This document shows positions 15,932 through 32,739 of a stretch of 64,000 nucleotides of DNA, piece by piece (position 1 is the stretch's first letter; every line of letters begins with the position of its first letter). The position numbers and the translations under genes were made by a program. This DNA comes from a virus, in the IMG/VR virus record IMGVR_UViG_3300025030_000076, positions 16,306-80,305 of that record; one strand, given 5' to 3'. Below the pieces are notes generated by a model. It ran no database searches and was not told the origin of the DNA. It worked only from the letters and a program-made list of their open reading frames with translations.

Positions 15932-16702
15932 TCACAATGCGAACTCCATTATCATTTGCTGTTGCGCCTGTTCGATGCGCTTCTCTGCAATTGCGAAGTA
16001 ATTCTCTTCGCGCTCAATTCCGATAAAATCACGGCCAGTCTTTACACACGCCACGCCCGTAGTACCTGAACCCATGCAGAAATCCAAAACGGTATCCCCT
16101 TCGTTCGTGTATGTCTTGATTAGATACTCGTACAGCGCGACGGGCTTTTGGGTGGGGTGTCCATTATTCTTTTTAGCCCAGCCATTACCAGTCCTAAACT
16201 CGATAATCGTTTTCGGGTATGAGTAATCGCTTCTAAACCCTGACCCGTTGACATGTTCCCCGTAAACACCTGCCTTGATAGGCTTGCCAACCCTTGTAAA
16301 ATTATCGCCTGAGCGATGAGTATTTCCAGACTTCTTAAACTTTTGCGGGTTGTAGGTATATCCATTTTGAGAAAACACAATAATGTTTTCGTGTTGCTTT
16401 AGCGGTATTCTCTTAGCGTTCAAGAAACCCGTTGGTGTGTGTTTATCCCAAATCCATTCATGCCTAAACATTTTCATATTTGAGTTAATTAAAATAGTTG
16501 TAAATGGCTGGCTTGCGGTCGTCACGAACGCACCCTTGCACAACCGCCTGACCTGCTCCCACATCGGCTCTAAGGGAATAATCACATCCCACTTGCAGGC
16601 CGTCGTGCCGTAGGGAACATCCGTGATAATCGCATCCACCGACCTTTCAGCCAGCATTGGCAGTATCTCAAGGCAGTCGCCAAGATGCAAGTCGAATGTC
16701 AT
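15932..16702 (-). CDS. DNA amino-methyltransferase (N6A/N4C, beta class)
   Basis: TDVPY (DPPY variant), HPTQKP, DFCMGSGTT. Confidence 0.9.
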   Translation of the reverse strand: MTFDLHLGDCLEILPMLAERSVDAIITDVPYGTTACKWDVIIPLEPMWEQVRRLCKGAFVTTASQPFTTILINSNMKMFRHEWIWDKHTPTGFLNAKRIPLKQHENIIVFSQNGYTYNPQKFKKSGNTHRSGDNFTRVGKPIKAGVYGEHVNGSGFRSDYSYPKTIIEFRTGNGWAKKNNGHPTQKPVALYEYLIKTYTNEGDTVLDFCMGSGTTGVACVKTGRDFIGIEREENYFAIAEKRIEQAQQQMIMEFAL

Positions 16703-24915: not shown

Positions 24916-26028
24916 TTATAAAAGTTTTGGGCTTTCCGGTTCTGCGCTCACGGCTTCCATCTGGAAATCATGGGCAAGCACAATCCTGGCGGCTTCGACT
25001 TTCTCGTTCAGGATGGATTTTTCAATCACATAATCGAGTTGCTCTTTGGTCAACTCGCCCATAAACTTCTCTTTGCCGCCTTTGACTTTGACGACAACCT
25101 GCTTCGCTTCGTCGTAGGTCATGGGGTGCAAGTCGGTTTCGGGTGGAAAATCTTTATCCAAATCGCCAGTGATGTCCTCCGGCTCTGCCTGTGCAGACAG
25201 GTCTTGCGTCACCGGAATATCCTCTGCCTCCACGTCAATCGGCTCATCTGCCCTCAATGCTTCCCTGAGTTGCGGAGAGTGTTCGATGCCGCTCTTATCC
25301 GCCCAATTCAAAAGCGCACGCAGGACGGTTTTCATTTCCATCGTGGGGCGCTTCTTTGGGTCTTTCCAGTTTGGGTTTTTTATCTTCCCGTCGTCGTCTA
25401 AATAGTCTTTGACATAGTTCATGGCGTGTTCTTCGATCTCGACGCAGGACATATAGACGGACTTCTCAAACCCCTTCGTGGTCTTGTAGTAGCCAAGCCA
25501 GCCTATTACTTTCTTGCCCTGGTCGCGTCGCACAGTGACATTGCGGGAATATGCGGCGTTATAGGATTGCGGCTGACCCATAAATCCATTTTCCTCCTGT
25601 ACCGCGTGCAGTCCGGTCAATGGGTTTTCAAACACCTGCTGGCCTTCATAGATCGGCGCAACGTTGATGATCCAGTACTTGTTCGTTCGCATAGCGAGGA
25701 AGTAAACCCCAAAATAATGAGGCTGAAATTGCGCTTCCTTGATCCACTTCGGGGTCTGCCCTTTCGGGGCAATGTTTCGATTGCGAGGGATAAGCCATGC
25801 CTGTTTTACGGCGGGGTCACAGGATAAACCGAGAGACGCGGCGCGCAAGGCGGCTCTATGAATGCTCTGCGGCGTGCATTGCATCAAGTCCTCTGTGGAG
25901 GACGCGGCAATGATTACGCTTTGCACATAAGGCGCGGCATCTTTTCCAAGCAGGTTGACAAAATCCTGGAAGTTGTCAGGCTGGCGGAGGTATTCGGTAA
26001 CTGGATTTTTTACGATTGCATTTTGCAT
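24916..26028 (-). CDS. recT: RecT-family ssDNA annealing recombinase
   Basis: CTPQSI..AA.LGL..DP...AWLIP; MEMKTVLR motif. Confidence 0.85.
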   Translation of the reverse strand: MQNAIVKNPVTEYLRQPDNFQDFVNLLGKDAAPYVQSVIIAASSTEDLMQCTPQSIHRAALRAASLGLSCDPAVKQAWLIPRNRNIAPKGQTPKWIKEAQFQPHYFGVYFLAMRTNKYWIINVAPIYEGQQVFENPLTGLHAVQEENGFMGQPQSYNAAYSRNVTVRRDQGKKVIGWLGYYKTTKGFEKSVYMSCVEIEEHAMNYVKDYLDDDGKIKNPNWKDPKKRPTMEMKTVLRALLNWADKSGIEHSPQLREALRADEPIDVEAEDIPVTQDLSAQAEPEDITGDLDKDFPPETDLHPMTYDEAKQVVVKVKGGKEKFMGELTKEQLDYVIEKSILNEKVEAARIVLAHDFQMEAVSAEPESPKLL

Positions 26029-26268
26029 GATGTTTATTCCTTTCTTTCTGTGATTAGGGTTCAATTTCAGGCACACTTGCGAACCACTCCGCCGATCCAA
26101 AGACGGGAGGCGGTTGCGGCGCTCGTGCGGCGGCTCGCTCGGCTCGCTCCCGACTCAATGTGCGGGATAGGTGCGCCCATTCGCTCAGGTTCTCGTCGCA
26201 GTCGTCCGCTTCAAATGCGGCATGTGCGTAGAGTTCCAGGAATATCAACTCGAAATAATCGTTGTCGG

Positions 26269-27068: not shown

Positions 27069-27098
27069 TTGACAAATTCAATGTTCCTGCTTTATAAT
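27069..27098 (+). promoter_or_regulatory. Rightward consensus sigma70 promoter driving the cassette-array operon
   Basis: TTGACA-18 bp-TATAAT. Confidence 0.8.
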
Positions 27099-27123: not shown

Positions 27124-27390
27124 ATGAACAAATTCGAAGAATTGCATGGTAGTCAAACACAAACTATCGCGGCGCTGGAAGCGGAGAATGCGAAACTGAG
27201 GGAGTTTGTCAGTAAATTTTCTGACAACTTCAGCGATTGTGATTACTGTAATGGCAAAGGCGTTTTTTCGGATGATATGATTGAGTGCCGCGTCTGTAAC
27301 GGGACCGGAAAACACATAACCTCAATTGGTGTGATGTTCGTGGAATTACCTGAAGAAGCCCGCGCCCTTCTCGCCCAGGAGCCAGCATGA
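27124..27390 (+). CDS. Hypothetical protein with DnaJ-like CxxCxGxG repeats
   Basis: CDYCNGKG...CRVCNGTG. Confidence 0.75.
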   Translation: MNKFEELHGSQTQTIAALEAENAKLREFVSKFSDNFSDCDYCNGKGVFSDDMIECRVCNGTGKHITSIGVMFVELPEEARALLAQEPA

Positions 27391-27528: not shown

Positions 27529-27723
27529 ATGAAATACCGACCTGATCTCACGGACTACCTGCCTTGCATCGAAGCACTTGCAGATAAATTGAATGAGGAT
27601 GCGATCTACAAAATGAGCAGGACTGATGCGGTAAAAATCGCCCTGGAAAAGGCACTTGAGAAAGTCGTGCCTGATGTTGTAATAAACAAAAAGCGGAAAA
27701 GGTACATCAAGCTGGATTTTTGA
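27529..27723 (+). CDS. Small ribbon-helix-helix-like protein
   Basis: MSRTDAVKIALEKAL pattern. Confidence 0.5.
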   Translation: MKYRPDLTDYLPCIEALADKLNEDAIYKMSRTDAVKIALEKALEKVVPDVVINKKRKRYIKLDF

Positions 27724-27809
27724 AAATGAGTGCGACGATGTACACTCCGCTCATACCCTAGTTAGACCCCTGTCTTGCTGGCAGGGTATCACCCAAAAGG
27801 AGAAAAAAC

Positions 27810-28097
27810 ATGAGCGCAGCAAGTGATTTGATTGAACGAATGGAACGCGAAACAGGTCTGCGGATTGATTCTGATGACCCAAACAATATGGCAATGGCTG
27901 GTTTATTCGGCGCAGTTGCCCGCATGATGGGCAAGTCAAGCCACGATGAGCGCGATGATGTTGTGGCTGGTCTCTTGGTCATGCACCAAATGACCCCAGA
28001 GTATCGCAATGAACAAGAGAGTAAACAAATGATTGCTTCTCTTTTGTCCAGTGGTCTCTCCCCTGATGATATTCGCAATATGTGGGGCGGGGTCTAA
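27810..28097 (+). CDS. Cassette 1 hypothetical protein
   Basis: AGGAG RBS; TAA stop lies in the R'' box GTCTAAC. Confidence 0.8.
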   Translation: MSAASDLIERMERETGLRIDSDDPNNMAMAGLFGAVARMMGKSSHDERDDVVAGLLVMHQMTPEYRNEQESKQMIASLLSSGLSPDDIRNMWGGV

Positions 28098-28182
28098 CAA
28101 ACGCTTGCAGTGGACTTGGCGGTACGGTGTGTCTTTTTGCGAAGGTTACGAACCGCCAAGCCACTAAAGCGAACCGTTCGGC
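28092..28182 (+). repeat. attC-like site 1
   Basis: GTCTAAC..CGCTTGCAGTGGACTTGGCGGT..ACCGCCAAGCCACTAAAGCG..GTTCGGC, with unpaired C and A on the left arm. Confidence 0.9.
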
Positions 28183-28214
28183 GGCTACCTTGCCAGCCGA
28201 GAAGTGAGAAATAA

Positions 28215-28448
28215 ATGGGTATTTATGAATGTAGTTGTTTGCCAGCAAATCTAAGCCCAAGCGGTGAATTTGAGTTGTGCGAAGTTTGCCGCCTGGAAGA
28301 AGAAAACGAAGATGATAACGCCGCCGAACAAAGCCTGCACCTGACGCTTGGGAGTCTGCGCCTAAAAAAGCAGTTTCCAAGCCGAAAGTTTTATCCACAT
28401 CTCAAACCTTATCCAAGCCCACCAAGCGCAGGTAAAGCACACCGTTAG
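28215..28448 (+). CDS. Cassette 2 Cys-containing protein reading through attC
   Basis: ORF track; stop lies in the R' GTTAG. Confidence 0.65.
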   Translation: MGIYECSCLPANLSPSGEFELCEVCRLEEENEDDNAAEQSLHLTLGSLRLKKQFPSRKFYPHLKPYPSPPSAGKAHR

Positions 28449-28450
28449 GT
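28323..28450 (+). repeat. attC-like site 2
   Basis: GCCGAAC..CCTGCACCTGACGCTTGG..CCAAGCGCAGGTAAAGC..GTTAGGT. Confidence 0.85.
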
Positions 28451-28455
28451 GGCTT

Positions 28456-29082
28456 ATGGCTAAATTTGATACGAAGTTTGCACACGCAAGAGAAGATTGG
28501 GAAACTCCCGATAGTATCTTCAAACCGTTGGAGGCTGAATTTGACATCGTGATTGATGTTTGTGCTTCCGAGCATAACAAGAAGTGTTCACTAAGATATA
28601 CCATTGAGGAGAATGGTCTTTTGCAAGATTGGTCACAGTGGCATGCGTGTTGGATGAACCCGCCATTTGGTCGGCAATCTGTGTGGGTCAAAAAGGCTTA
28701 CACGGAAAGCCTGCGAGGAGCAACGGTTGTCTGTCTACTTCCTGCCCGCACTAATACTAATTGGTGGCACGACTTTTGCATGAAAGGCACGGTTCGCTTT
28801 TTGCGTGGTCGTCCCATCTTTGTCGGAGCCAAACATGGTTTACCCCAGCCGTTGGCTGCTGTGATGTTGAGCGCCAGTGTGCTCGCGGCCGCATTGGTCA
28901 GGGTCAGAATGTTTGTGGCGGGTGGGATGATTGCCGCCGCCGTGATGTGCATTGTCATATTCCAGCCACCTAACACATGCGTGCAGTCGGACGGGGCTTA
29001 CTGTGCGTGCAAAGAAGGGTTATCCTTCACGGTGGCGAATGGCACAAATTATTGTCTTGCGTGCGGTCAGCCCCGCCGCTAA
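28456..29082 (+). CDS. Cassette 3: phage-type DNA N6-adenine methyltransferase with a 31-aa insertion
   Basis: WETP, DVCAS, WMNPPF, LPARTNTNWWH, FLRGR. Confidence 0.85.
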   Translation: MAKFDTKFAHAREDWETPDSIFKPLEAEFDIVIDVCASEHNKKCSLRYTIEENGLLQDWSQWHACWMNPPFGRQSVWVKKAYTESLRGATVVCLLPARTNTNWWHDFCMKGTVRFLRGRPIFVGAKHGLPQPLAAVMLSASVLAAALVRVRMFVAGGMIAAAVMCIVIFQPPNTCVQSDGAYCACKEGLSFTVANGTNYCLACGQPRR

Positions 29083-29097
29083 CGCAAGCCGTTAGCT
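28968..29097 (+). repeat. attC-like site 3
   Basis: ACCTAAC..GCGTGCAGTCGGACGGGGCT..AGCCCCGCCGCTAACGC..GTTAGCT. Confidence 0.9.
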
Positions 29098-29120
29098 GGC
29101 ACTTTGCAAAGGATGTAATT

Positions 29121-29285
29121 ATGAGTATTGTCAGACCGCACGGAAGCAGTACCAAGATTTTTCGTGAACTACGTAAAACAAGATGTATTTTTTGTGGGTT
29201 CGGCGTGAAACTTGTTGTCAGGAAAACTGGCAACAAAGTCGAGAAAGTATGTCCGAAGTGTGGCAGGAAGTTTCAGAGGTCATGA
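29121..29285 (+). CDS. Cassette 4 zinc-ribbon protein
   Basis: CIFC...CPKC. Confidence 0.65.
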   Translation: MSIVRPHGSSTKIFRELRKTRCIFCGFGVKLVVRKTGNKVEKVCPKCGRKFQRS

Positions 29286-29289
29286 AGCG

Positions 29290-29379
29290 GGCTAACAAAT
29301 GCGTGCAGGCGACATGGGTGGGCGGCGGTCAAAATCGGACAGTCATAGCCACCCATGCGCCTAACGCAAGCCGTTCGGC
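29290..29379 (+). repeat. attC-like site 4
   Basis: GGCTAAC..GCGTGCAGGCGACATGGGTGG..CCACCCATGCGCCTAACGC..GTTCGGC. Confidence 0.9.
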
Positions 29380-29408
29380 GGCTACCTTATAGCCAGAAGG
29401 AGCAAACA

Positions 29409-29678
29409 GTGAAAATTTTAGGTGATACTATCGTGTGTAAGATCATGCACTCTCAATACTGTTTTTCGTGTGGTCGCCATTTGGCAACTGCCAAAACAAC
29501 CAAAGCCACCGAAAAGATTGTTTTGAAAAATGGCGGCTCGATCCGTAAAGATGGTTTTTATCGTGCGTACTGCGCGTCCCATGTGCCGCCCAACACGGCG
29601 TGCAGCGGATTGGCGGATGAATTATTACCCGGTATTGCGTTGCCCGAATGGATTTTGAGAAATCCCGCCAACCGCTAA
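29409..29678 (+). CDS. Cassette 5 CxxC protein reading through attC
   Basis: AAGGAG RBS, GTG start, stop in the L' TAA. Confidence 0.7.
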   Translation: MKILGDTIVCKIMHSQYCFSCGRHLATAKTTKATEKIVLKNGGSIRKDGFYRAYCASHVPPNTACSGLADELLPGIALPEWILRNPANR

Positions 29679-29693
29679 CGCAAACCGTTAGCC
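29588..29693 (+). repeat. attC-like site 5
   Basis: GCCCAAC..GCGTGCAGCGGATTGGCGG..CCGCCAACCGCTAACGC..GTTAGCC. Confidence 0.9.
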
Positions 29694-29717
29694 CGCTCTT
29701 TCGGGCAAGGAAAATCA

Positions 29718-29831
29718 ATGAACAAGAAACGAGAACTAATATTTATCACAGTATGGCTGGCTGGAGTCATAGGTTTGGTTTTGGTTGTATTACAGCTTCG
29801 CCAAATTTGTCCGTGTTGGTGGCTACCATGA
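29718..29831 (+). CDS. Cassette 6 small single-TM peptide
   Basis: MNKKRELIFITVWLAGVIGLVLVVLQLRQICPCWWLP; AAGGA RBS. Confidence 0.6.
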   Translation: MNKKRELIFITVWLAGVIGLVLVVLQLRQICPCWWLP

Positions 29832-29835
29832 AGCG

Positions 29836-29960
29836 GTCTAACAATGCGTGCAGTTGACGGCGGGAAGGCTCCCGGCTGTACATGCAACGCCTACCAATTA
29901 GAGAACTTCGGTTGTAAATGTGGTGCGGCAACCCGCCGCAACTAACGCAAACCGTTGGTG
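29836..29960 (+). repeat. attC-like site 6
   Basis: GTCTAAC..GCGTGCAGTTGACGGCGGG..CCCGCCGCAACTAACGC..GTTGGTG. Confidence 0.9.
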
Positions 29961-29985
29961 CGGACTTAGTTAGGAAAGGTAAAAT

Positions 29986-30219
29986 ATGTATCTAAAACTC
30001 ATGAATGATTACGAGGAAGAATTGAGACTAGCAGGAAGAAAAATTAAGGTAAACGATCATTTTGCAAGGTTTGATTTTGCAAGTTGGCTAGATAGACAAG
30101 CCGCCCAACAACCGCTTGCACAGCCGACTGGTTGCTGGGCGTGTGGCGATAAAGGTATCATCCGCGCCGATGGTATCGCTATCAACTGTTCGGTTTGCAA
30201 TCCCGCAACCAGCCGCTAA
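29986..30219 (+). CDS. Cassette 7 protein; its C-terminal CxxC...CxxC is encoded by the attC loop
   Basis: ORF track; stop in the L' TAA. Confidence 0.75.
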   Translation: MYLKLMNDYEEELRLAGRKIKVNDHFARFDFASWLDRQAAQQPLAQPTGCWACGDKGIIRADGIAINCSVCNPATSR

Positions 30220-30233
30220 CGCAAGCCTTGGGC
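30103..30233 (+). repeat. attC-like site 7 (R' degenerate, CTTGGGC)
   Basis: GCCCAAC..CTGGTTGC..GCAACCAGCCGCTAACGC. Confidence 0.75.
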
Positions 30234-30253
30234 GGAAGCCCTGCAAGGTAAAC

Positions 30254-30454
30254 GTGAAAGAAAGTTTTTGTGAATGCAATCACCCCCAAAGGTTTCATGG
30301 TACGCACTTGTCTGATGATACTTATGATGGTGCTTGCGTGCGTCAAACCTGCAAATGCCGTAAATTCCGCCCAACAAAGCGTGGGCTTTGGGCGTGGGCT
30401 AATTATCGTATTGGTGAATTTGTGTGGTCTTGCCGAGCGTGGTTGGATGTATAA
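30254..30454 (+). CDS. Cassette 8 Cys/His-rich protein
   Basis: GTG start; CECNH...H...C...CKC. Confidence 0.6.
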   Translation: MKESFCECNHPQRFHGTHLSDDTYDGACVRQTCKCRKFRPTKRGLWAWANYRIGEFVWSCRAWLDV

Positions 30455-30485
30455 ATCGCCAGCCAGTAATGCAAGACCATTGGAC
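30369..30485 (+). repeat. Degenerate attC-like site 8
   Basis: TTCCGCCCAAC matches the cassette start (C)TTGGGCGGAA; right arm eroded. Confidence 0.55.
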
Positions 30486-30506
30486 AGTGCGCTGTAAGGA
30501 GTAGAA

Positions 30507-30770
30507 ATGAACGTTGATTTAGAAAAAGAGATCGACACTGTTGCGGAATTCTGCTGTGACAATCCTAACTATAATGAGTTGCGCGAAGAAATTGCAACTC
30601 TTGTCCGTAAATATCATCAAATTGCTGGAGACTTGGCGTTGGAGGTTTGGAGATTGAGCCGCCCAACTACGGGTGCAGTTGACTCGGCGGAGATTCCCGA
30701 AGTTTTCAACCTGCAACCAAAAGTGATTGCAAAAGGTCGTATTGTGTTCGATGACCCGCCGAGCAACTAA
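30507..30770 (+). CDS. Cassette 9 hypothetical protein reading through attC
   Basis: AAGGAG RBS; stop in the L' TAA. Confidence 0.75.
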   Translation: MNVDLEKEIDTVAEFCCDNPNYNELREEIATLVRKYHQIAGDLALEVWRLSRPTTGAVDSAEIPEVFNLQPKVIAKGRIVFDDPPSN

Positions 30771-30779
30771 TCGTTAGCT
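30661..30779 (+). repeat. attC-like site 9
   Basis: GCCCAAC..GCAGTTGACTCGGCGG..CCGCCGAGCAACTAA..GTTAGCT, with a shortened L'-R' spacer. Confidence 0.8.
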
Positions 30780-30803
30780 GGCTCTTCAAGAAAGAAGGTA
30801 ATC

Positions 30804-31016
30804 ATGGAAAAATGTGATCGTTGTGGTAAAAAAGTAAAGGTGTATCCAACTCATTATTCGGCATGGAATGAACTTTGCCTGCCGTGTATCAAACTCATGG
30901 GGCTTGGTTTGCCTGAAATGCAACCAGCTAACAAAAGCGTGGAGCCGACTTGTCCAAACTGCGGCGAACCATTGCATTATCACCCTACCGCCGACTGCAA
31001 AGTAGCCCGCTCTTGA
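30804..31016 (+). CDS. Cassette 10 multi-CxxC protein
   Basis: CDRC, CLPC, CPNC. Confidence 0.75.
   Translation: MEKCDRCGKKVKVYPTHYSAWNELCLPCIKLMGLGLPEMQPANKSVEPTCPNCGEPLHYHPTADCKVARS
30926..31008 (+). repeat. Degenerate attC-like site 10
   Basis: CCAGCTAAC matches the cassette start GTTAGCTGG; R' is GTAGCCC (one T lost). Confidence 0.6.
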
Positions 31017-31027
31017 AAGGATAGGTT

Positions 31028-31240
31028 ATGAACTATACAAAAGCGAATCAGGCTCTTGCTAATGAGTTCGGCGCAGGTCAGGTCGAAGTCCATAAGGCAA
31101 AGAAGGGTGATCCGTGGGAATACACACTCTGGTTCTTGGATGATGATCCTGCGCCTGGCGTAATCGAGAAGGCTAAGAAAATCGTTGGTCGCTTCGAGCC
31201 GTCTCGGTGGTTCGATAAGTTGAAATTCCATTCCGAGTAG
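31028..31240 (+). CDS. Cassette 11 hypothetical protein
   Basis: RBS present; stop just before the R'' GGCTAAC. Confidence 0.75.
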   Translation: MNYTKANQALANEFGAGQVEVHKAKKGDPWEYTLWFLDDDPAPGVIEKAKKIVGRFEPSRWFDKLKFHSE

Positions 31241-31242
31241 CG

Positions 31243-31370
31243 GGCTAACACGGGCTTGCACAGGGACGGCTTGCCAGCCGAACATCGCGTGCAGTGGACT
31301 TTGGCTACTGTGTGGCAAATTTTTTGTGGCTCTATATCGCCGCCAAAGCCACTAACGCAAACCGTTGGGC
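31243..31370 (+). repeat. attC-like site 11: truncated left arm fused to a complete second attC (31277-31370)
   Basis: GGCTAAC..GCTTGCAC, then GCCGAAC..GCGTGCAGTGGACTTTGGC..GCCAAAGCCACTAACGC..GTTGGGC. Confidence 0.85.
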
Positions 31371-31397
31371 GGACTAGCTCAACAGAAAGATTTTGAA

Positions 31398-31622
31398 ATG
31401 AATTGTCAATATTGCAAACATTCGATAGACGAGCATGATAGTGGGGGATGTCATCGTAAAATTGACGGCGGTATCTGCGATTGTAATCATTCCCCAAACT
31501 ATATCGCCGCCCAACAAATGCGTGCAGGCGACTTGGCTACTGGTTGCCCGTTCTGCGGTGTCTCCGCCGAAGATATTGCATTGCTCAATGAATCGCTTGC
31601 GCGTGAAACGCCAAGCGTCTAA
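31398..31622 (+). CDS. Cassette 12 Cys/His-rich protein reading through attC
   Basis: CQYCKH...C...CDC; CPFC in the attC loop. Confidence 0.75.
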   Translation: MNCQYCKHSIDEHDSGGCHRKIDGGICDCNHSPNYIAAQQMRAGDLATGCPFCGVSAEDIALLNESLARETPSV

Positions 31623-31638
31623 CCCAAGTCCGTTGGGC
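31509..31638 (+). repeat. attC-like site 12
   Basis: GCCCAAC..GCGTGCAGGCGACTTGGC..GCCAAGCGTCTAAC..GTTGGGC. Confidence 0.85.
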
Positions 31639-31667
31639 GGACTACCCGACTTTGAAAGGAAAATAAA

Positions 31668-31856
31668 ATGTCAGACGAGAAAAAACAAGTAGTAATTCAC
31701 AGGGATGGCTCTGTGACCGAGCAAAGAAGTAATGATCTTCCAATTGTTTTGCTGCCATCAAAGCAAACCGCCCAACACGGCGTGGAGCCGACTGTTTGTC
31801 CTAAGTGCGGTCACGCTGTTGGTGGTCATAATGCACTTTGTCCAATTGGTAATTAG
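31668..31856 (+). CDS. Cassette 13 protein; CPKC..H..C encoded in attC
   Basis: AAGGA RBS. Confidence 0.7.
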   Translation: MSDEKKQVVIHRDGSVTEQRSNDLPIVLLPSKQTAQHGVEPTVCPKCGHAVGGHNALCPIGN

Positions 31857-31881
31857 TGGCGGCTCACGCGCCCCGTTGGGC
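31770..31881 (+). repeat. attC-like site 13
   Basis: GCCCAAC..GCGTGGAGCCGAC..GCGGCTCACGC..GTTGGGC. Confidence 0.85.
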
Positions 31882-31908
31882 GGACGCTCCGCCAGGAAGT
31901 GAGGAAGC

Positions 31909-32130
31909 ATGAAAATTTGTGATGCTTGCGGAAAAGCATGTTATAGTTTTGCAACTTACAAAATATGTAGGCATATTGTTTGTAGCCGTCACGAATATCC
32001 AGAAAGTTGCCCTGTGTGCGCCGCCCAACACGGCGTGCAGCGGACGACTGATGACGTCCGCGAAAATGTTGGTGTTTCTGAAAATGGTGAACTGCATTCA
32101 GTAATGCGTGGAACAACCCGCCGCCGCTAA
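31909..32130 (+). CDS. Cassette 14 Cys-rich protein reading through attC
   Basis: CDAC...CPVC; stop in the L' TAA. Confidence 0.75.
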   Translation: MKICDACGKACYSFATYKICRHIVCSRHEYPESCPVCAAQHGVQRTTDDVRENVGVSENGELHSVMRGTTRRR

Positions 32131-32146
32131 CGCAAGTCCGTTGGGC
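32023..32146 (+). repeat. attC-like site 14 (terminal)
   Basis: GCCCAAC..GCGTGCAGCGGAC..GCCGCTAACGC..GTTGGGC. Confidence 0.85.
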
Positions 32147-32152
32147 TCCAAT

Positions 32153-32173
32153 AGCCCCCACTTAGGGGGCTTT
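32153..32173 (+). terminator. Hairpin terminator closing the cassette operon
   Basis: AGCCCCC-ACTTA-GGGGGCT-TT. Confidence 0.65.
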
Positions 32174-32250
32174 GTGTTATAATCAGAACGAATGTGCTCC
32201 CGCGTGATGGAACACCGGGAGCGTGATCTCAGCACAACGGAGGTGCTTCG

Positions 32251-32739
32251 ATGGAAGAGATTTTAACACGCTTTTGTCCAAGGTGCGGGGTAGAGCATAA
32301 ATTATCGGAATTCAAAAGAGAACCCAAGCCAGGTAGATACCCAGGGTCATGCGTTTACAGCGGACGAGATGCGCGTATTTCTAAACCACCTAAAACAAAA
32401 ACAACAAAACCGCCTCCCGTTTATCTAGACGCCAGTTATCTTCCAAAAAAGAGGGTGGTAGGGTTATTTCCGCGTATTCAGACAATATTTTCCCATTCTT
32501 ACCGCGCTCGCGCCAACGGCAACAATGGGAAAATCATATATCAGGAATGGGAGGATCTGAAAGAAAAATATAACAATACCTGTCTGTGTTGTGGCAGACG
32601 ATCTCCTGAAGTCGAAATAACTCTTGACCACGTACTCCCCTTGAGTATGGGGGGTAGGAATACTATTGAGAACGCCCAGCCGCTTTGTCTTTCTTGTAAC
32701 TGCAAGAAAAGCACGAAATACATTGATTATCGCCCCTAA
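32251..32739 (+). CDS. HNH endonuclease
   Basis: CLCC...DHVLP...GG.N...N.QPLC..CN. Confidence 0.9.
   Translation: MEEILTRFCPRCGVEHKLSEFKREPKPGRYPGSCVYSGRDARISKPPKTKTTKPPPVYLDASYLPKKRVVGLFPRIQTIFSHSYRARANGNNGKIIYQEWEDLKEKYNNTCLCCGRRSPEVEITLDHVLPLSMGGRNTIENAQPLCLSCNCKKSTKYIDYRP

Follow-up and report, generated by a model that had tools for sequence, protein, structure and literature searches.

Integron cassettes of the classical type are recognised by attC sites with R'', L'', L' and R' boxes, an unpaired spacer, extra-helical bases and a variable terminal structure, by the G|TT crossover signature, and by ORFs that lack a promoter but each have a ribosome-binding site. The stop codon of a resistance cassette usually overlaps the beginning of its attC site (PMC11511950), and untranslated stretches as well as attC hairpins cause cassettes further downstream to be expressed less (PMC11511950; PMC8876359, section 3.2). 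Short ORFs in attC or attI sites, such as ORF-11 and ORF-17, show that translating a recombination site can relieve the structural barrier and couple expression to the next cassette (PMC8876359). Arrays of attC sites without intI have been described in phage genomes (Qi et al., 2023; PMC9892861), with a single cassette orientation, methyltransferase cassettes and a host integrase presumably required. As for attC sites within genes, only engineered ones were found in the literature (Nivina et al., 2020; PMC7439510), where an in-frame hairpin inside a coding sequence serves as a peptide linker and stays recombinogenic; no paper describing a natural coding attC was found. The array reported here combines elements of all these systems, i.e., the boxes, spacer, extra-helical bases, variable terminal structure, crossover signature and promoterless ORFs of classical cassettes, the integrase-less, unidirectional, methyltransferase-bearing arrays of phages, and hairpins in frame with genes, the translation of which may act as proposed for the short ORFs.

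The array and its genomic setting

The window, i.e., the whole stretch of 64,000 nucleotides that was analysed, belongs to a groundwater phage with a complete genome of 80 kb. It contains 14 integron-type cassettes, all on the + strand between 27761 and 32146, for which every site and ORF was re-derived. No integrase was found in the complete phage genome carrying the array, nor any tyrosine recombinase in the phage record, and the 14 cassettes form a CALIN, i.e., an integron array lacking an integrase, with attC sites of the type present in Chloroflexota. The surroundings of the array are as follows:

24916–26100, − strand: RecT-family annealing protein of the phage (context), 1.7 kb left of the array
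27069–27098, + strand: sigma-70-type promoter, TTGACA-18-TATAAT (12/12), by consensus match only, heading the unit that contains the array
27761–27767, + strand: left array boundary GTTAGAC, read directly from the sequence
32153–32178, + strand: intrinsic-terminator-like hairpin followed by a T run, immediately 3' of the last attC
32251–32739, + strand: HNH endonuclease (context), then tail genes on the − strand

Bracketed by this single promoter and this single terminator-like hairpin, the array would sit in one early transcription unit of the phage. No attC lies upstream of the left boundary (27761), and the bases following the G of GTTAGAC (TTAGACCCC) are the exact complement of the R'' of cassette a itself (GGGGTCTAA). 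The phage also encodes a free-standing DnaJ-type small protein at 27124–27390 (29 bits, for a cut-off of 32.7).

The cassettes, lettered a to n, are listed below (all + strand; bits refer to the covariance model). ORF starts were corrected for d (29121), e (most likely GTG at 29409), h (GTG, 30254–30454) and l (ATG at 31398).

27810–28097: ORF a, 95 aa; stop is the TAA of R'' (classical arrangement)
28092–28182: attC a, 91 nt, short loop, untranslated; 75 bits
28215–28448: ORF b, 77 aa; reads through the whole attC to a TAG (28446–48) inside R'
28323–28450: attC b, 128 nt, translated; 86 bits
28456–29082: ORF c, 208 aa, Dam N6-adenine methyltransferase; stop is the L' TAA (29080–82)
28968–29097: attC c, 130 nt, translated, CxC..CxxC; 97 bits
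29121–29285: ORF d, 54 aa, zinc-ribbon-like body; TGA stop 4 nt 5' of R''
29290–29379: attC d, 90 nt, untranslated; 81 bits
29409–29678: ORF e, 89 aa counted from GTG, tail PPNTACSGL..NPANR; stop is the L' TAA (29676–78)
29588–29693: attC e, 106 nt, translated, loop without Cys motif; 93 bits
29718–29831: ORF f, 37 aa, hydrophobic; TGA stop two codons 5' of R''
29836–29960: attC f, 125 nt, loop GCTC..GCKC..RRN, then L' TAA; 93 bits
29986–30219: ORF g, 77 aa; stop is the L' TAA (30217–19)
30103–30233: attC g, 131 nt, translated; R' lacks one G (CTTGGGC); 85 bits
30254–30454: ORF h, 66 aa, Cys-rich, GTG start; passes R'' into a decayed attC and stops there at a TAA
30369–30485: attC h, decayed, R'' kept but no GTT R'; missed by the covariance model
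30507–30770: ORF i, 87 aa, tail without Cys; stop is the L' TAA (30768–70)
30661–30779: attC i, 119 nt, translated; 77 bits
30804–31016: ORF j, 70 aa, tail PANKSVEPTCPNCGEPLHYHPTADC; TGA stop 9 nt 3' of a decayed R'
30926–31007: attC j, decayed, AGTAGCC replacing GTTAGCC
31028–31240: ORF k, 70 aa; TAG stop 2 nt 5' of R''
31243–31370: attC k, two tandem R''-L'' left arms (31243, 31277); model match 31272–31373, 81 bits
31398–31622: ORF l, 74 aa, ATG start, Cys/His-rich body, tail AAQQMRAGDLATGCPFCG..; stop is the L' TAA (31620–22)
31509–31638: attC l, 130 nt, translated; 101 bits
31668–31856: ORF m, 62 aa, tail AQHGVEPTVCPKCGHAVGGHNALCPIGN; TAG stop (31854–56) just 5' of L'
31770–31881: attC m, 112 nt, translated; L' CTCAC replacing CTAAC; 72 bits
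31909–32130: ORF n, 73 aa, Cys-rich body, tail AAQHGVQRTTDDVRENVGVSENGELHSVMRGTTRRR; stop is the L' TAA (32128–30)
32023–32146: attC n, 124 nt, translated, right end of the array; 89 bits

Genes reading through their attC sites

A preliminary description of this DNA had reported 10 of the 14 ORFs entering the attC and six ending at the TAA of L', and the re-derived sites give the same counts: ORFs b, c, e, g, h, i, j, l, m and n extend beyond R'', and c, e, g, i, l and n terminate at the L' TAA, while a stops at the TAA of R'' and d, f and k 2–7 nt 5' of R''. The attC-encoded portion makes up the final 30–40 amino acids of the preceding gene. With CAAC as R'', all frames of the R''-L'' arm are free of stops, and the recurring peptides listed in that description are this conserved arm in three frames (AAQQ.., AQHGV[EQ].T, PPNTAC.., PANKSVEPT). 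The Cys motifs it had noted likewise lie in the ORF frame, namely CAC..CLAC in c, CWAC..CSVC in g, CPNC in j, CPFC in l and CPKC..H..H..C in m; in g, the Cys residues (CWAC-x14-CSVC) are confined to the attC loop and occur nowhere else in the ORF, and the Dam of cassette c carries a 31-aa hydrophobic insertion besides its attC-encoded tail PPNTCVQSDGAYCACKEG..YCLACGQPRR. As also described, the loop of the sixth site, attC f, still codes for GCTC..GCKC up to the L' TAA, beyond the stop of ORF f; since this loop is in frame with ORF f with one TGA in between, the tail is severed by a single stop. In cassette b, the TAG lies beyond the crossover point in R', so that the stop codon would be supplied by the next cassette. 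With four of the 14 cassettes exhibiting a classical stop, and with two decayed sites, the read-through design is not obligatory.

The three frames were compared in 85 related attC sites from viral contigs. The one in phase with the L' TAA stays open through the site and for 25 codons or more past it in 49 of them, and the other two do so in 16 and 7 (p = 1.4e-9; 44, 13 and 7 without the sites of the window), an openness in phase that is not due to chance. In IMG/VR arrays other than the window, 38/92 ORFs stop at L' and 16/92 before or in R'', whereas on bacterial contigs of at least 100 kb (33 sites on about 10 contigs) the corresponding figures are 2/33 at L' and 21/33 before R'' (p = 1e-4 and 3e-6 relative to the IMG/VR arrays), the nature of many of the compared contigs being as given by IMG/VR or by MAG binning, with phage genes verified in only a few. 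Because the ORFs of chromosomal Chloroflexota integrons, with the same attC arms, end before R'', the coding attC looks like a trait of phage arrays.

Selection on the loop-encoded peptides

The proposal in the preliminary description that the hairpins are of dual use is borne out at the codon level. In the g-tail family, differences by codon position ([3,2,10], [4,2,13] and [1,0,6]) exhibit a third-position excess, pN/pS is about 0.05–0.2 in frame but exceeds 1 once the frame is shifted, and the Cys codons alternate between TGC and TGT; the n tail follows the same pattern ([1,0,5]). CxxC motifs in the loops number 17 in the ORF frame against 5 in the five other frames combined (p = 7e-10; about 10-fold), i.e., 1.8 per 100 aa against 0.1–0.2 in the other frames and 0.41 in ORF bodies. 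Four Cys/His ligands are present in 14 of 46 tails in the ORF frame (about 30%) and in 3 of 230 in other frames, and three diverged loops have conserved CxxCxGxG pairs. Judged by these patterns, the loop peptides are kept by selection at the protein level, although many tails may be weakly constrained since the pooled pN/pS of 16 diverged tail pairs is only 0.76 (about 1.0 in shifted frames).

That attC translation has been selected only for expression or compaction, i.e., for hairpin melting, coupling and space, with functionless passenger tails and incidental Cys motifs, is the foremost alternative. It would suit the pooled pN/pS just given, the Pro/Ser/Gly/Ala-rich composition of many tails, their addition to complete enzymes (Dam and other methyltransferases), the distance of 33–52 nt from the L' stop to the next start in the window, and the published polar effects of untranslated stretches (PMC11511950). 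It appears unlikely, though, in view of the strong purifying selection on the g and n tails, of a CxxC and four-ligand enrichment of at least 10-fold restricted to the ORF frame, of the CxxCxGxG pairs kept across diverged loops, and of the copy of the g tail in L156 (P0003), which lies in an ordinary operon and has kept 82% identity although its arms have decayed. The tails would be translated, and a tail is often a probable zinc-binding one; all Pfam hits of the tails to zinc-ribbon and DnaJ families fall under the curated cut-offs, and AlphaFold, run on a single sequence, gives a poor model of ORF g (pLDDT 58).

Independent assortment of tails and bodies

Homologous tails are borne by unrelated bodies in 27 of 28 pairs, e.g., the n tail AAQHGVQRTTDDVRENVGVSENGELHSVMRGTTRRR is also found on an unrelated body in L020, and reciprocally the bodies homologous to those of g, m and the Dam gene bear other tails. 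One Dam body family has four different tails; native homologs of Dam are about 140 aa long and finish with ..PLAIVIFR, and the attC tail is added after that end. These observations support a tail that behaves as a module, with bodies and tails assorting independently. The preliminary description had proposed a swappable metal-binding module; modularity holds, while the four-ligand motif applies to only about 30% of tails, and IntI crossover cannot by itself account for the swapping, since the crossover point (G|TT in R') lies 3' of the stop so that body and tail move together.

The same description had considered that the arms were built around coding sequence which the phages already had. In that case, the loop peptides would be native phage C-termini and the arm-less homologs ancestral. 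The g-type zinc ribbon of L156 in a normal operon without attC sites, as well as P0002 and P0126, where the bodies of g and m have different, arm-less C-termini, could be taken in this sense. Nonetheless, four different attC tails appended after the native Dam end, the same tails on unrelated bodies and arms common to hundreds of sites, including chromosomal ones beside intI, all disfavour it; besides, L156, the sole arm-less copy of the g tail, retains a degenerate R''-L'' left arm resembling the family consensus, which fits decay better than a proto-site. Such an origin is thus quite improbable.

Identity of the attC sites

A covariance model built from 12 sites gives 86% paired cells with compensatory changes in the L stem, and the observed value is not attained in any of 500 shuffles. 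R'' fits the first bases of its own cassette better than the adjacent R', with 8.06 against 5.62 of 9 in viral arrays (p = 4e-11) and 8.33 against 6.15 in bacterial arrays, and the same attC family adjoins a divergent intI (TIGR02249, 438 bits) in an Anaerolineales chromosome. By these features, the sites are attC sites. That they are instead phage-specific attC-like palindromes, e.g., transcription terminators or RecT recombination hotspots, as the absence of an integrase from the phage, the proximity of RecT and tail/body swaps at the arms unexplained by IntI crossover at R' might suggest, is very improbable given the presence of every structural attC feature, the strong signature of cassette permutation that excision and insertion by IntI typically leave, the canonical position of the family beside intI in a Chloroflexota chromosome, and the experimental recombination by IntI1 of phage attC sites of other families (PMC9892861).

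Proposed explanation

The reading that best accommodates these observations, and which appears probable as a whole, is that of a phage CALIN where the attC lies within the gene and supplies a linker, a loop-encoded tail and the L' TAA stop, with loops under selection as protein and the whole forming a portable unit of tail, stop and recombination. As such, one stretch of DNA appears to be at once a recombination site, a protein module and a stop codon. The R''-L'' arm would give a linker of about 10 residues and the variable loop a peptide of 20–25 residues, with the conserved L' TAA as the stop codon of the gene. About one third of the loop peptides would form two Cys/His knuckles, i.e., a zinc-ribbon-like four-ligand motif, the remainder looking like flexible tails, and the attC with its tail joins unrelated bodies freely.

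Two reasons can be put forward for such an arrangement. Firstly, translating ribosomes would keep a very stable RNA hairpin (−38 to −62 kcal/mol for the attC sites) melted and terminate 30–50 nt before the next start, so that promoterless downstream cassettes would stay expressed; about 100 nt would also be saved per cassette in a genome limited in size. Secondly, a zinc knuckle would give an obligatory tail its own compact fold and may add a binding capacity. A host IntI, rather than one of the phage, would move entire cassettes at G|TT in R', while the exchange of tails between bodies would need a separate event at or near R''. Both the expression benefit and the recombination activity of the sites are deduced here from sequence.

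Comparison with known systems

Like small zinc-ribbon or DnaJ-type CxxCxGxG fingers, the tails have two Cys/His knuckles 10–20 residues apart, and some related loops contain CxxCxGxG twice; in contrast to those fingers, they stay below the Pfam cut-offs, are encoded inside a DNA recombination hairpin, and their metal binding is putative. Whereas the short ORFs of attC and attI sites are separate, leader-like mini-ORFs (PMC8876359), here the ORF of the cassette itself crosses the site. Compared with classical cassettes, and with chromosomal arrays of the same family, the stop in the phage array is displaced to the L' TAA on the distal side of the site, and the loop is part of the coding sequence. 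The 17 phage CALINs reported previously have at least 2 sites each, with no translated attC described (PMC9892861), whereas the present array has 14 sites, 10 of them inside an ORF, with loops that would encode selected peptide modules. Finally, while the coding attC sites of Nivina et al. (2020; PMC7439510) are products of in silico design with tests in E. coli, those considered here are natural and family-wide, and appear to provide folded-domain-like tails together with the stop codon.

Organisation and Phage Setting of the Array

In an IMG/VR phage record of 80,305 bp, rated complete (100%) by CheckV and covered by the window from base 16306 to base 80305, 14 small plus-strand ORFs, namely cassettes a to n, lie between the RecT gene and an HNH endonuclease, itself followed by the phage tail genes. 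Each of these ORFs has a purine-rich ribosome-binding site of its own, and imperfect palindromes of 82–131 nt (attC a to n) come after them, one per ORF. A consensus promoter and a terminator flank the array plus three small genes, all of which looks, from the sequence, like one transcription unit.

24916–26100, minus strand, RecT gene
27069–27098, consensus promoter
32153–32178, terminator

A profile search of the whole 80,305-bp record returned no match to the integron integrase (TIGR02249) or to the tyrosine recombinases (PF00589). The array is not adjoined by intI, as a complete integron would be; what is found corresponds to the definition of a CALIN, i.e., at least two attC and no integrase nearby, with 12 window sites retrieved by a covariance model, besides 2 decayed ones. 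Since the record carries neither an integron integrase nor any other tyrosine recombinase, the array is considered a CALIN in a phage. Among INPHARED phages, blastn gave no match to the array, and the relatives of the phage sought via HNH and RecT for an empty-site comparison came to none, or only one 35% relative. The region 27700–32200 is near-complete (95–100% of sampled words) in 20 metagenome runs from 14 studies, namely groundwater, sediment and soil metagenomes, the contigs of which also hold array variants, e.g., the body of cassette e (the ORF before R'') at 89% identity. Just upstream of the array, a free-standing gene of 88 aa (27124–27390) exhibits a DnaJ-type CxxCxGxG pair, with a score of 29.2 bits against PF00684, below the cut-off of 32.7; this motif is also encoded in attC loops of three related arrays (L025, L027, and L050).

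Anatomy of the attC Sites and Their Integron Nature

The palindromes of the window show the full attC anatomy, i.e., R'', an unpaired spacer, the L'' arm, a variable loop, L' and R'. The R'' box mostly reads GCCCAAC or GKCTAAC, the L'' arm carries two extra bases, the L' box reads ..CGCTAACGC.. and R' corresponds to GTTRRRY. Both core boxes, R'' (RYYYAAC) and R' (GTTRRRY), are intact in 11 of the 14 sites. The R' of attC g reads CTTGGGC, while attC h (30369–30485) and attC j (30926–31007) are devoid of the GTT (ATTGGAC and AGTAGCC, respectively); the cassettes at these three sites are probably fixed in place, i.e., fused cassettes. In attC k (31243–31300), two tandem R''-L'' left arms (at 31243 and 31277) precede one L'-R' arm, a doubling that may be what is left of a cassette since lost, or else stem from partial duplication.

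A strict regular expression for R'' and R' overlooked most sites and was replaced by the covariance model. The structure drawn on 12 window sites, tested against 500 shuffles and slid controls, is 86% paired with compensatory changes in the L stem; for helix 2 (the L''/L' stem), pairing reaches 94.6% and both-sided changes occur in 6 of 11 pairs. None of the 500 shuffles attained the observed covariation score and the slid controls were only 25–38% paired. In the resulting alignment (A1), columns 13–16 and 131–136 are unpaired (central spacer), and on the top strand the extra bases comprise G/C in columns 21–22 and A in column 30, which correspond on the bottom strand to G (or C) and T, separated by 7 nt. 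In the definition of attC, the extra-helical bases on the R''-L'' arm are G and T of the bottom strand (PMC2727003).

A search with the R''-L'' motif retrieved 28 loci in IMG/VR and at least 80 in bacterial and archaeal genome assemblies, the latter mostly from Chloroflexota (Anaerolineales, Chloroflexia, Thermoflexales), wherein the covariance model built from the window sites located about 100 more sites among the viral loci, and 136 among the genome loci. In related viral arrays, R'' matches the first bases of its own cassette (8.06/9) better than the adjacent R' (5.62/9; p = 4e-11), 58 sites being better and 6 worse for this permutation signature, and the same holds in bacterial arrays (8.33 vs. 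6.15); in the window, 7 sites are better and 2 worse, a difference that taken alone lacks significance. The signature is regarded as the mark left by cassettes being excised and inserted at G|TT. Besides, the integron integrase TIGR02249 scored above the curated cut-off in 3 of 5 genomes tested and, on an Anaerolineales chromosome (L151), an attC of the window family sits upstream of intI, at a distance of about 700 nt and on the opposite strand, as in the canonical integron layout. Judging from such sequence features, the window-family sites are considered to belong to real integrons.

Joints and loose ends at attC arms in Logan contigs from four DNA runs were also considered as signs of excision and rejected, because their sides of only 20–36 nt stem from repeats or other cassettes.

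Predicted Translation Through the Sites

The preliminary description had viewed the cassette ORFs as running into their attC sites. This was re-derived for 10 of the 14 ORFs, which extend past R'', and for the six stopping at the TAA of L' (29082, 29678, 30219, 30770, 31622, and 32130); the recurring arm peptides it listed correspond to the conserved left arm read in three frames, and every one of its Cys motifs lies in the ORF frame. Independently of gene calls, 85 viral sites with an L' TAA were searched for frames open throughout the site and for 25 or more further codons. In 49 of them the frame that shares the phase of the TAA is open, compared with 16 and 7 for the other two frames (p = 1.4e-9), or 44, 13, and 7 when the window is left aside. 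Reading through the attC is a property of the site family, beyond this array. In a metagenomic relative of attC g (L154, 1326–1462, identical in L155), the L' TAA is changed to TAG at the same codon (AGC AGG TAG), the stop being retained despite the changed sequence of the box.

Loops as Protein-Coding Sequence

Codon-level conservation, the lack of which in the loops would have spoken against their translation, was found as an excess of third-position differences in two tails (attC-encoded C-termini), namely those of cassettes g and n. A metagenome scan with the g-tail alignment gave relatives of the g loop in four loci (L154–L157), with differences at the first, second and third codon positions of 1, 0, 3; 1, 0, 6; 3, 2, 10; and 4, 2, 13. 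In frame, pN/pS is about 0.05–0.2, vs. more than 1 in both shifted frames, and the Cys codons of the family switch between TGC and TGT (p = 6e-5 and 3e-4). The n tail, a non-Cys one, differs from its relative in L020 at 1, 0, and 5 positions. Variant Logan contigs from the four DNA runs reproduce the L020-type n tail, and the changes they bear in the m tail spare the Cys/His positions. Many tails are probably weakly constrained, though, since the pooled pN/pS is only 0.76 over 16 mostly saturated pairs. By codon-usage log-likelihood, 35 of 46 loops prefer the ORF frame, a result inflated by the lack of stops in that frame and thus given little weight.

As regards motifs, 46 read-through tails, arms excluded, contain 17 CxxC in the ORF frame and 1, 2, 1, 1, and 0 in the other five frames, and the CxxC density in tails is four times that in ORF bodies (p = 7e-10 and 5e-5 for the CxxC tests). 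A two-knuckle motif with four ligands is present in frame in 14 of 46 viral tails vs. 3 of 230 tail-frames otherwise (0–1 per other frame). In the window, four Cys/His ligands are encoded in the c, g, and m tails and in the untranslated f loop, the j tail exhibits CPNC..H.H..C and the l tail one knuckle. In three diverged loops CxxCxGxG appears twice, and this doubling is read as a motif of the protein and not of the DNA. None of the tails scored above the curated cut-offs of the Pfam zinc ribbons or DnaJ zinc finger; sub-threshold matches were obtained with Zn_ribbon_3 for j (20.4 vs. 27 bits) and Phage_zn_bind_7 for m (14.7 vs. 27), and ORF g had no Pfam zinc-ribbon or DnaJ match at all. The AlphaFold2 single-sequence model of ORF g is of too low quality for use (pLDDT 58), with short strands at 57–59 and 65–66.

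Modularity of Bodies and Tails

The attC tail had been proposed as a swappable C-terminal module, and 27 of 28 homologous tail pairs indeed sit on unrelated bodies. Three other bodies carry the g tail (proteins P0003 and P0004, and locus L154), while the g and m bodies are found with other tails (P0002 and P0126, respectively); neither P0003 nor P0002 was found in the viral contig collection. Phage Dam homologs of about 140 aa end with ..PLAIVIFR; in four Dam genes, cassette c among them, an attC tail follows straight after this end, a different one in each. In the Dam of cassette c, a hydrophobic in-frame insertion of 31 aa (28865–28960; AVMLSAS..AAVMC) splits the last conserved strand (PLA|IVIF) and is absent from the closest homologs (P0005, P0046, and P0087) and the native homologs of about 140 aa. 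Unrelated predicted zinc tails also occur on two bodies 68% identical.

Homology stops within one codon of R''. The IntI crossover cannot produce such swaps because its crossover point lies 3' of the stop codon. Candidate routes for joining body and attC are (i) exchange by homology within the conserved arm, with RecT encoded nearby, (ii) IntI events of the top-strand or secondary-site kind at R'' AA|C, and (iii) cassette genesis.

As an alternative, the preliminary description had suggested that the arms were assembled around coding sequence that the phage already had. In metagenomic locus L156, a g-type ribbon (82% identity) ends a gene with an ATGA stop/start overlap; the operon it belongs to is ordinary and tightly packed, and no attC was found in this 1.9-kb contig. 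A degenerate R''-L'' arm persists upstream of the first knuckle, with L'-R' gone downstream. The favoured reading, in which the direction of change is a probable one, is that the recombination arms of L156 decayed and the protein tail was retained, which would argue for tail function and against that alternative.

Phage-Type and Chromosomal Arrays

The position of the ORF stop differs significantly between the IMG/VR set and bacterial contigs of at least 100 kb (p = 1e-4 and 3e-6), the chromosomal sample being small (n = 33) and the viral status of many contigs being that of the IMG/VR classification.

Position of the ORF stop relative to the attC site in the IMG/VR contig set (window excluded) and in bacterial contigs of at least 100 kb
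At L': IMG/VR 38/92; bacterial 2/33
Inside the site: IMG/VR 23/92; bacterial 3/33
At R' or beyond: IMG/VR 13/92; bacterial 5/33
Before or in R'': IMG/VR 16/92; bacterial 21/33, all before R''

Short MAG contigs resemble viral ones in this respect, and a tape-measure gene adjoins one related array. While the attC arms are common to both settings, translated sites look like a trait of phage-type arrays. An Anaerolineales MAG carries, on Mb-size contigs (L034, L068, L094, and L151), a large integron in its chromosome that shares the attC arms and has an intI; unlike in phage arrays, its ORFs mostly stop before R''. Arrays of the attC family with translated tails are also present on short contigs binned to a CPR bacterium (L083) and to a Woesearchaeota, a DPANN archaeon (L106), which may be mis-binned phage contigs or indicate a wider host range.

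Proposed Working

Untranslated stretches and attC hairpins depress the expression of downstream cassettes, and translation across them relieves it (PMC11511950; PMC8876359). The attC RNA hairpins are here very stable (−38 to −62 kcal/mol). In a phage early operon, all cassettes would need to be expressed in limited space; with the L' stop 33–52 nt before the next start, reading through the hairpin would solve both expression and space. If a tail of about 35 residues is obligatory, the smallest self-folding solution would be a zinc knuckle, which would also fit the Cys-rich small proteins that cassettes encode. A possible reading, put forward tentatively and as rather less than probable, is that phages keep their own cassette pool, distinct from the host chromosomal integrons, where sites of this family are untranslated. 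In such a pool the attC hairpin would be a portable protein part, made up of a linker, a small zinc-binding or flexible C-terminal domain and a stop codon, and recombination at its conserved arms would not only shuffle genes but also give rise to small proteins of new, chimeric make-up.

If true, this would amount to a natural domain-shuffling system built on a structure-specific recombination site. Routine translation of a natural attC family would by itself show that one DNA stretch can satisfy hairpin, recombination and protein constraints at once. It suggests that small zinc-finger proteins form a separate cassette pool in phages, with probable roles in host takeover or anti-defence, and bears on how cassette expression escapes polarity. 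For annotation, tools cutting ORFs at attC or dropping overlapping ORFs will mis-call such genes; for synthetic biology, a ready-made set of natural coding attC would be at hand.

Comparison with Known Systems

The integron attC is classically a non-coding, structure-specific recombination site. CALINs have already been described in phages (Qi et al., 2023; PMC9892861), and attC sites inside coding sequence have been reported only in engineered form (PMC7439510). In the literature, no account of natural translated attC loops was found, which does not prove their absence from it. While the engineered coding attC sites are designed (PMC7439510), those of the window family are natural and lie within coding sequence.
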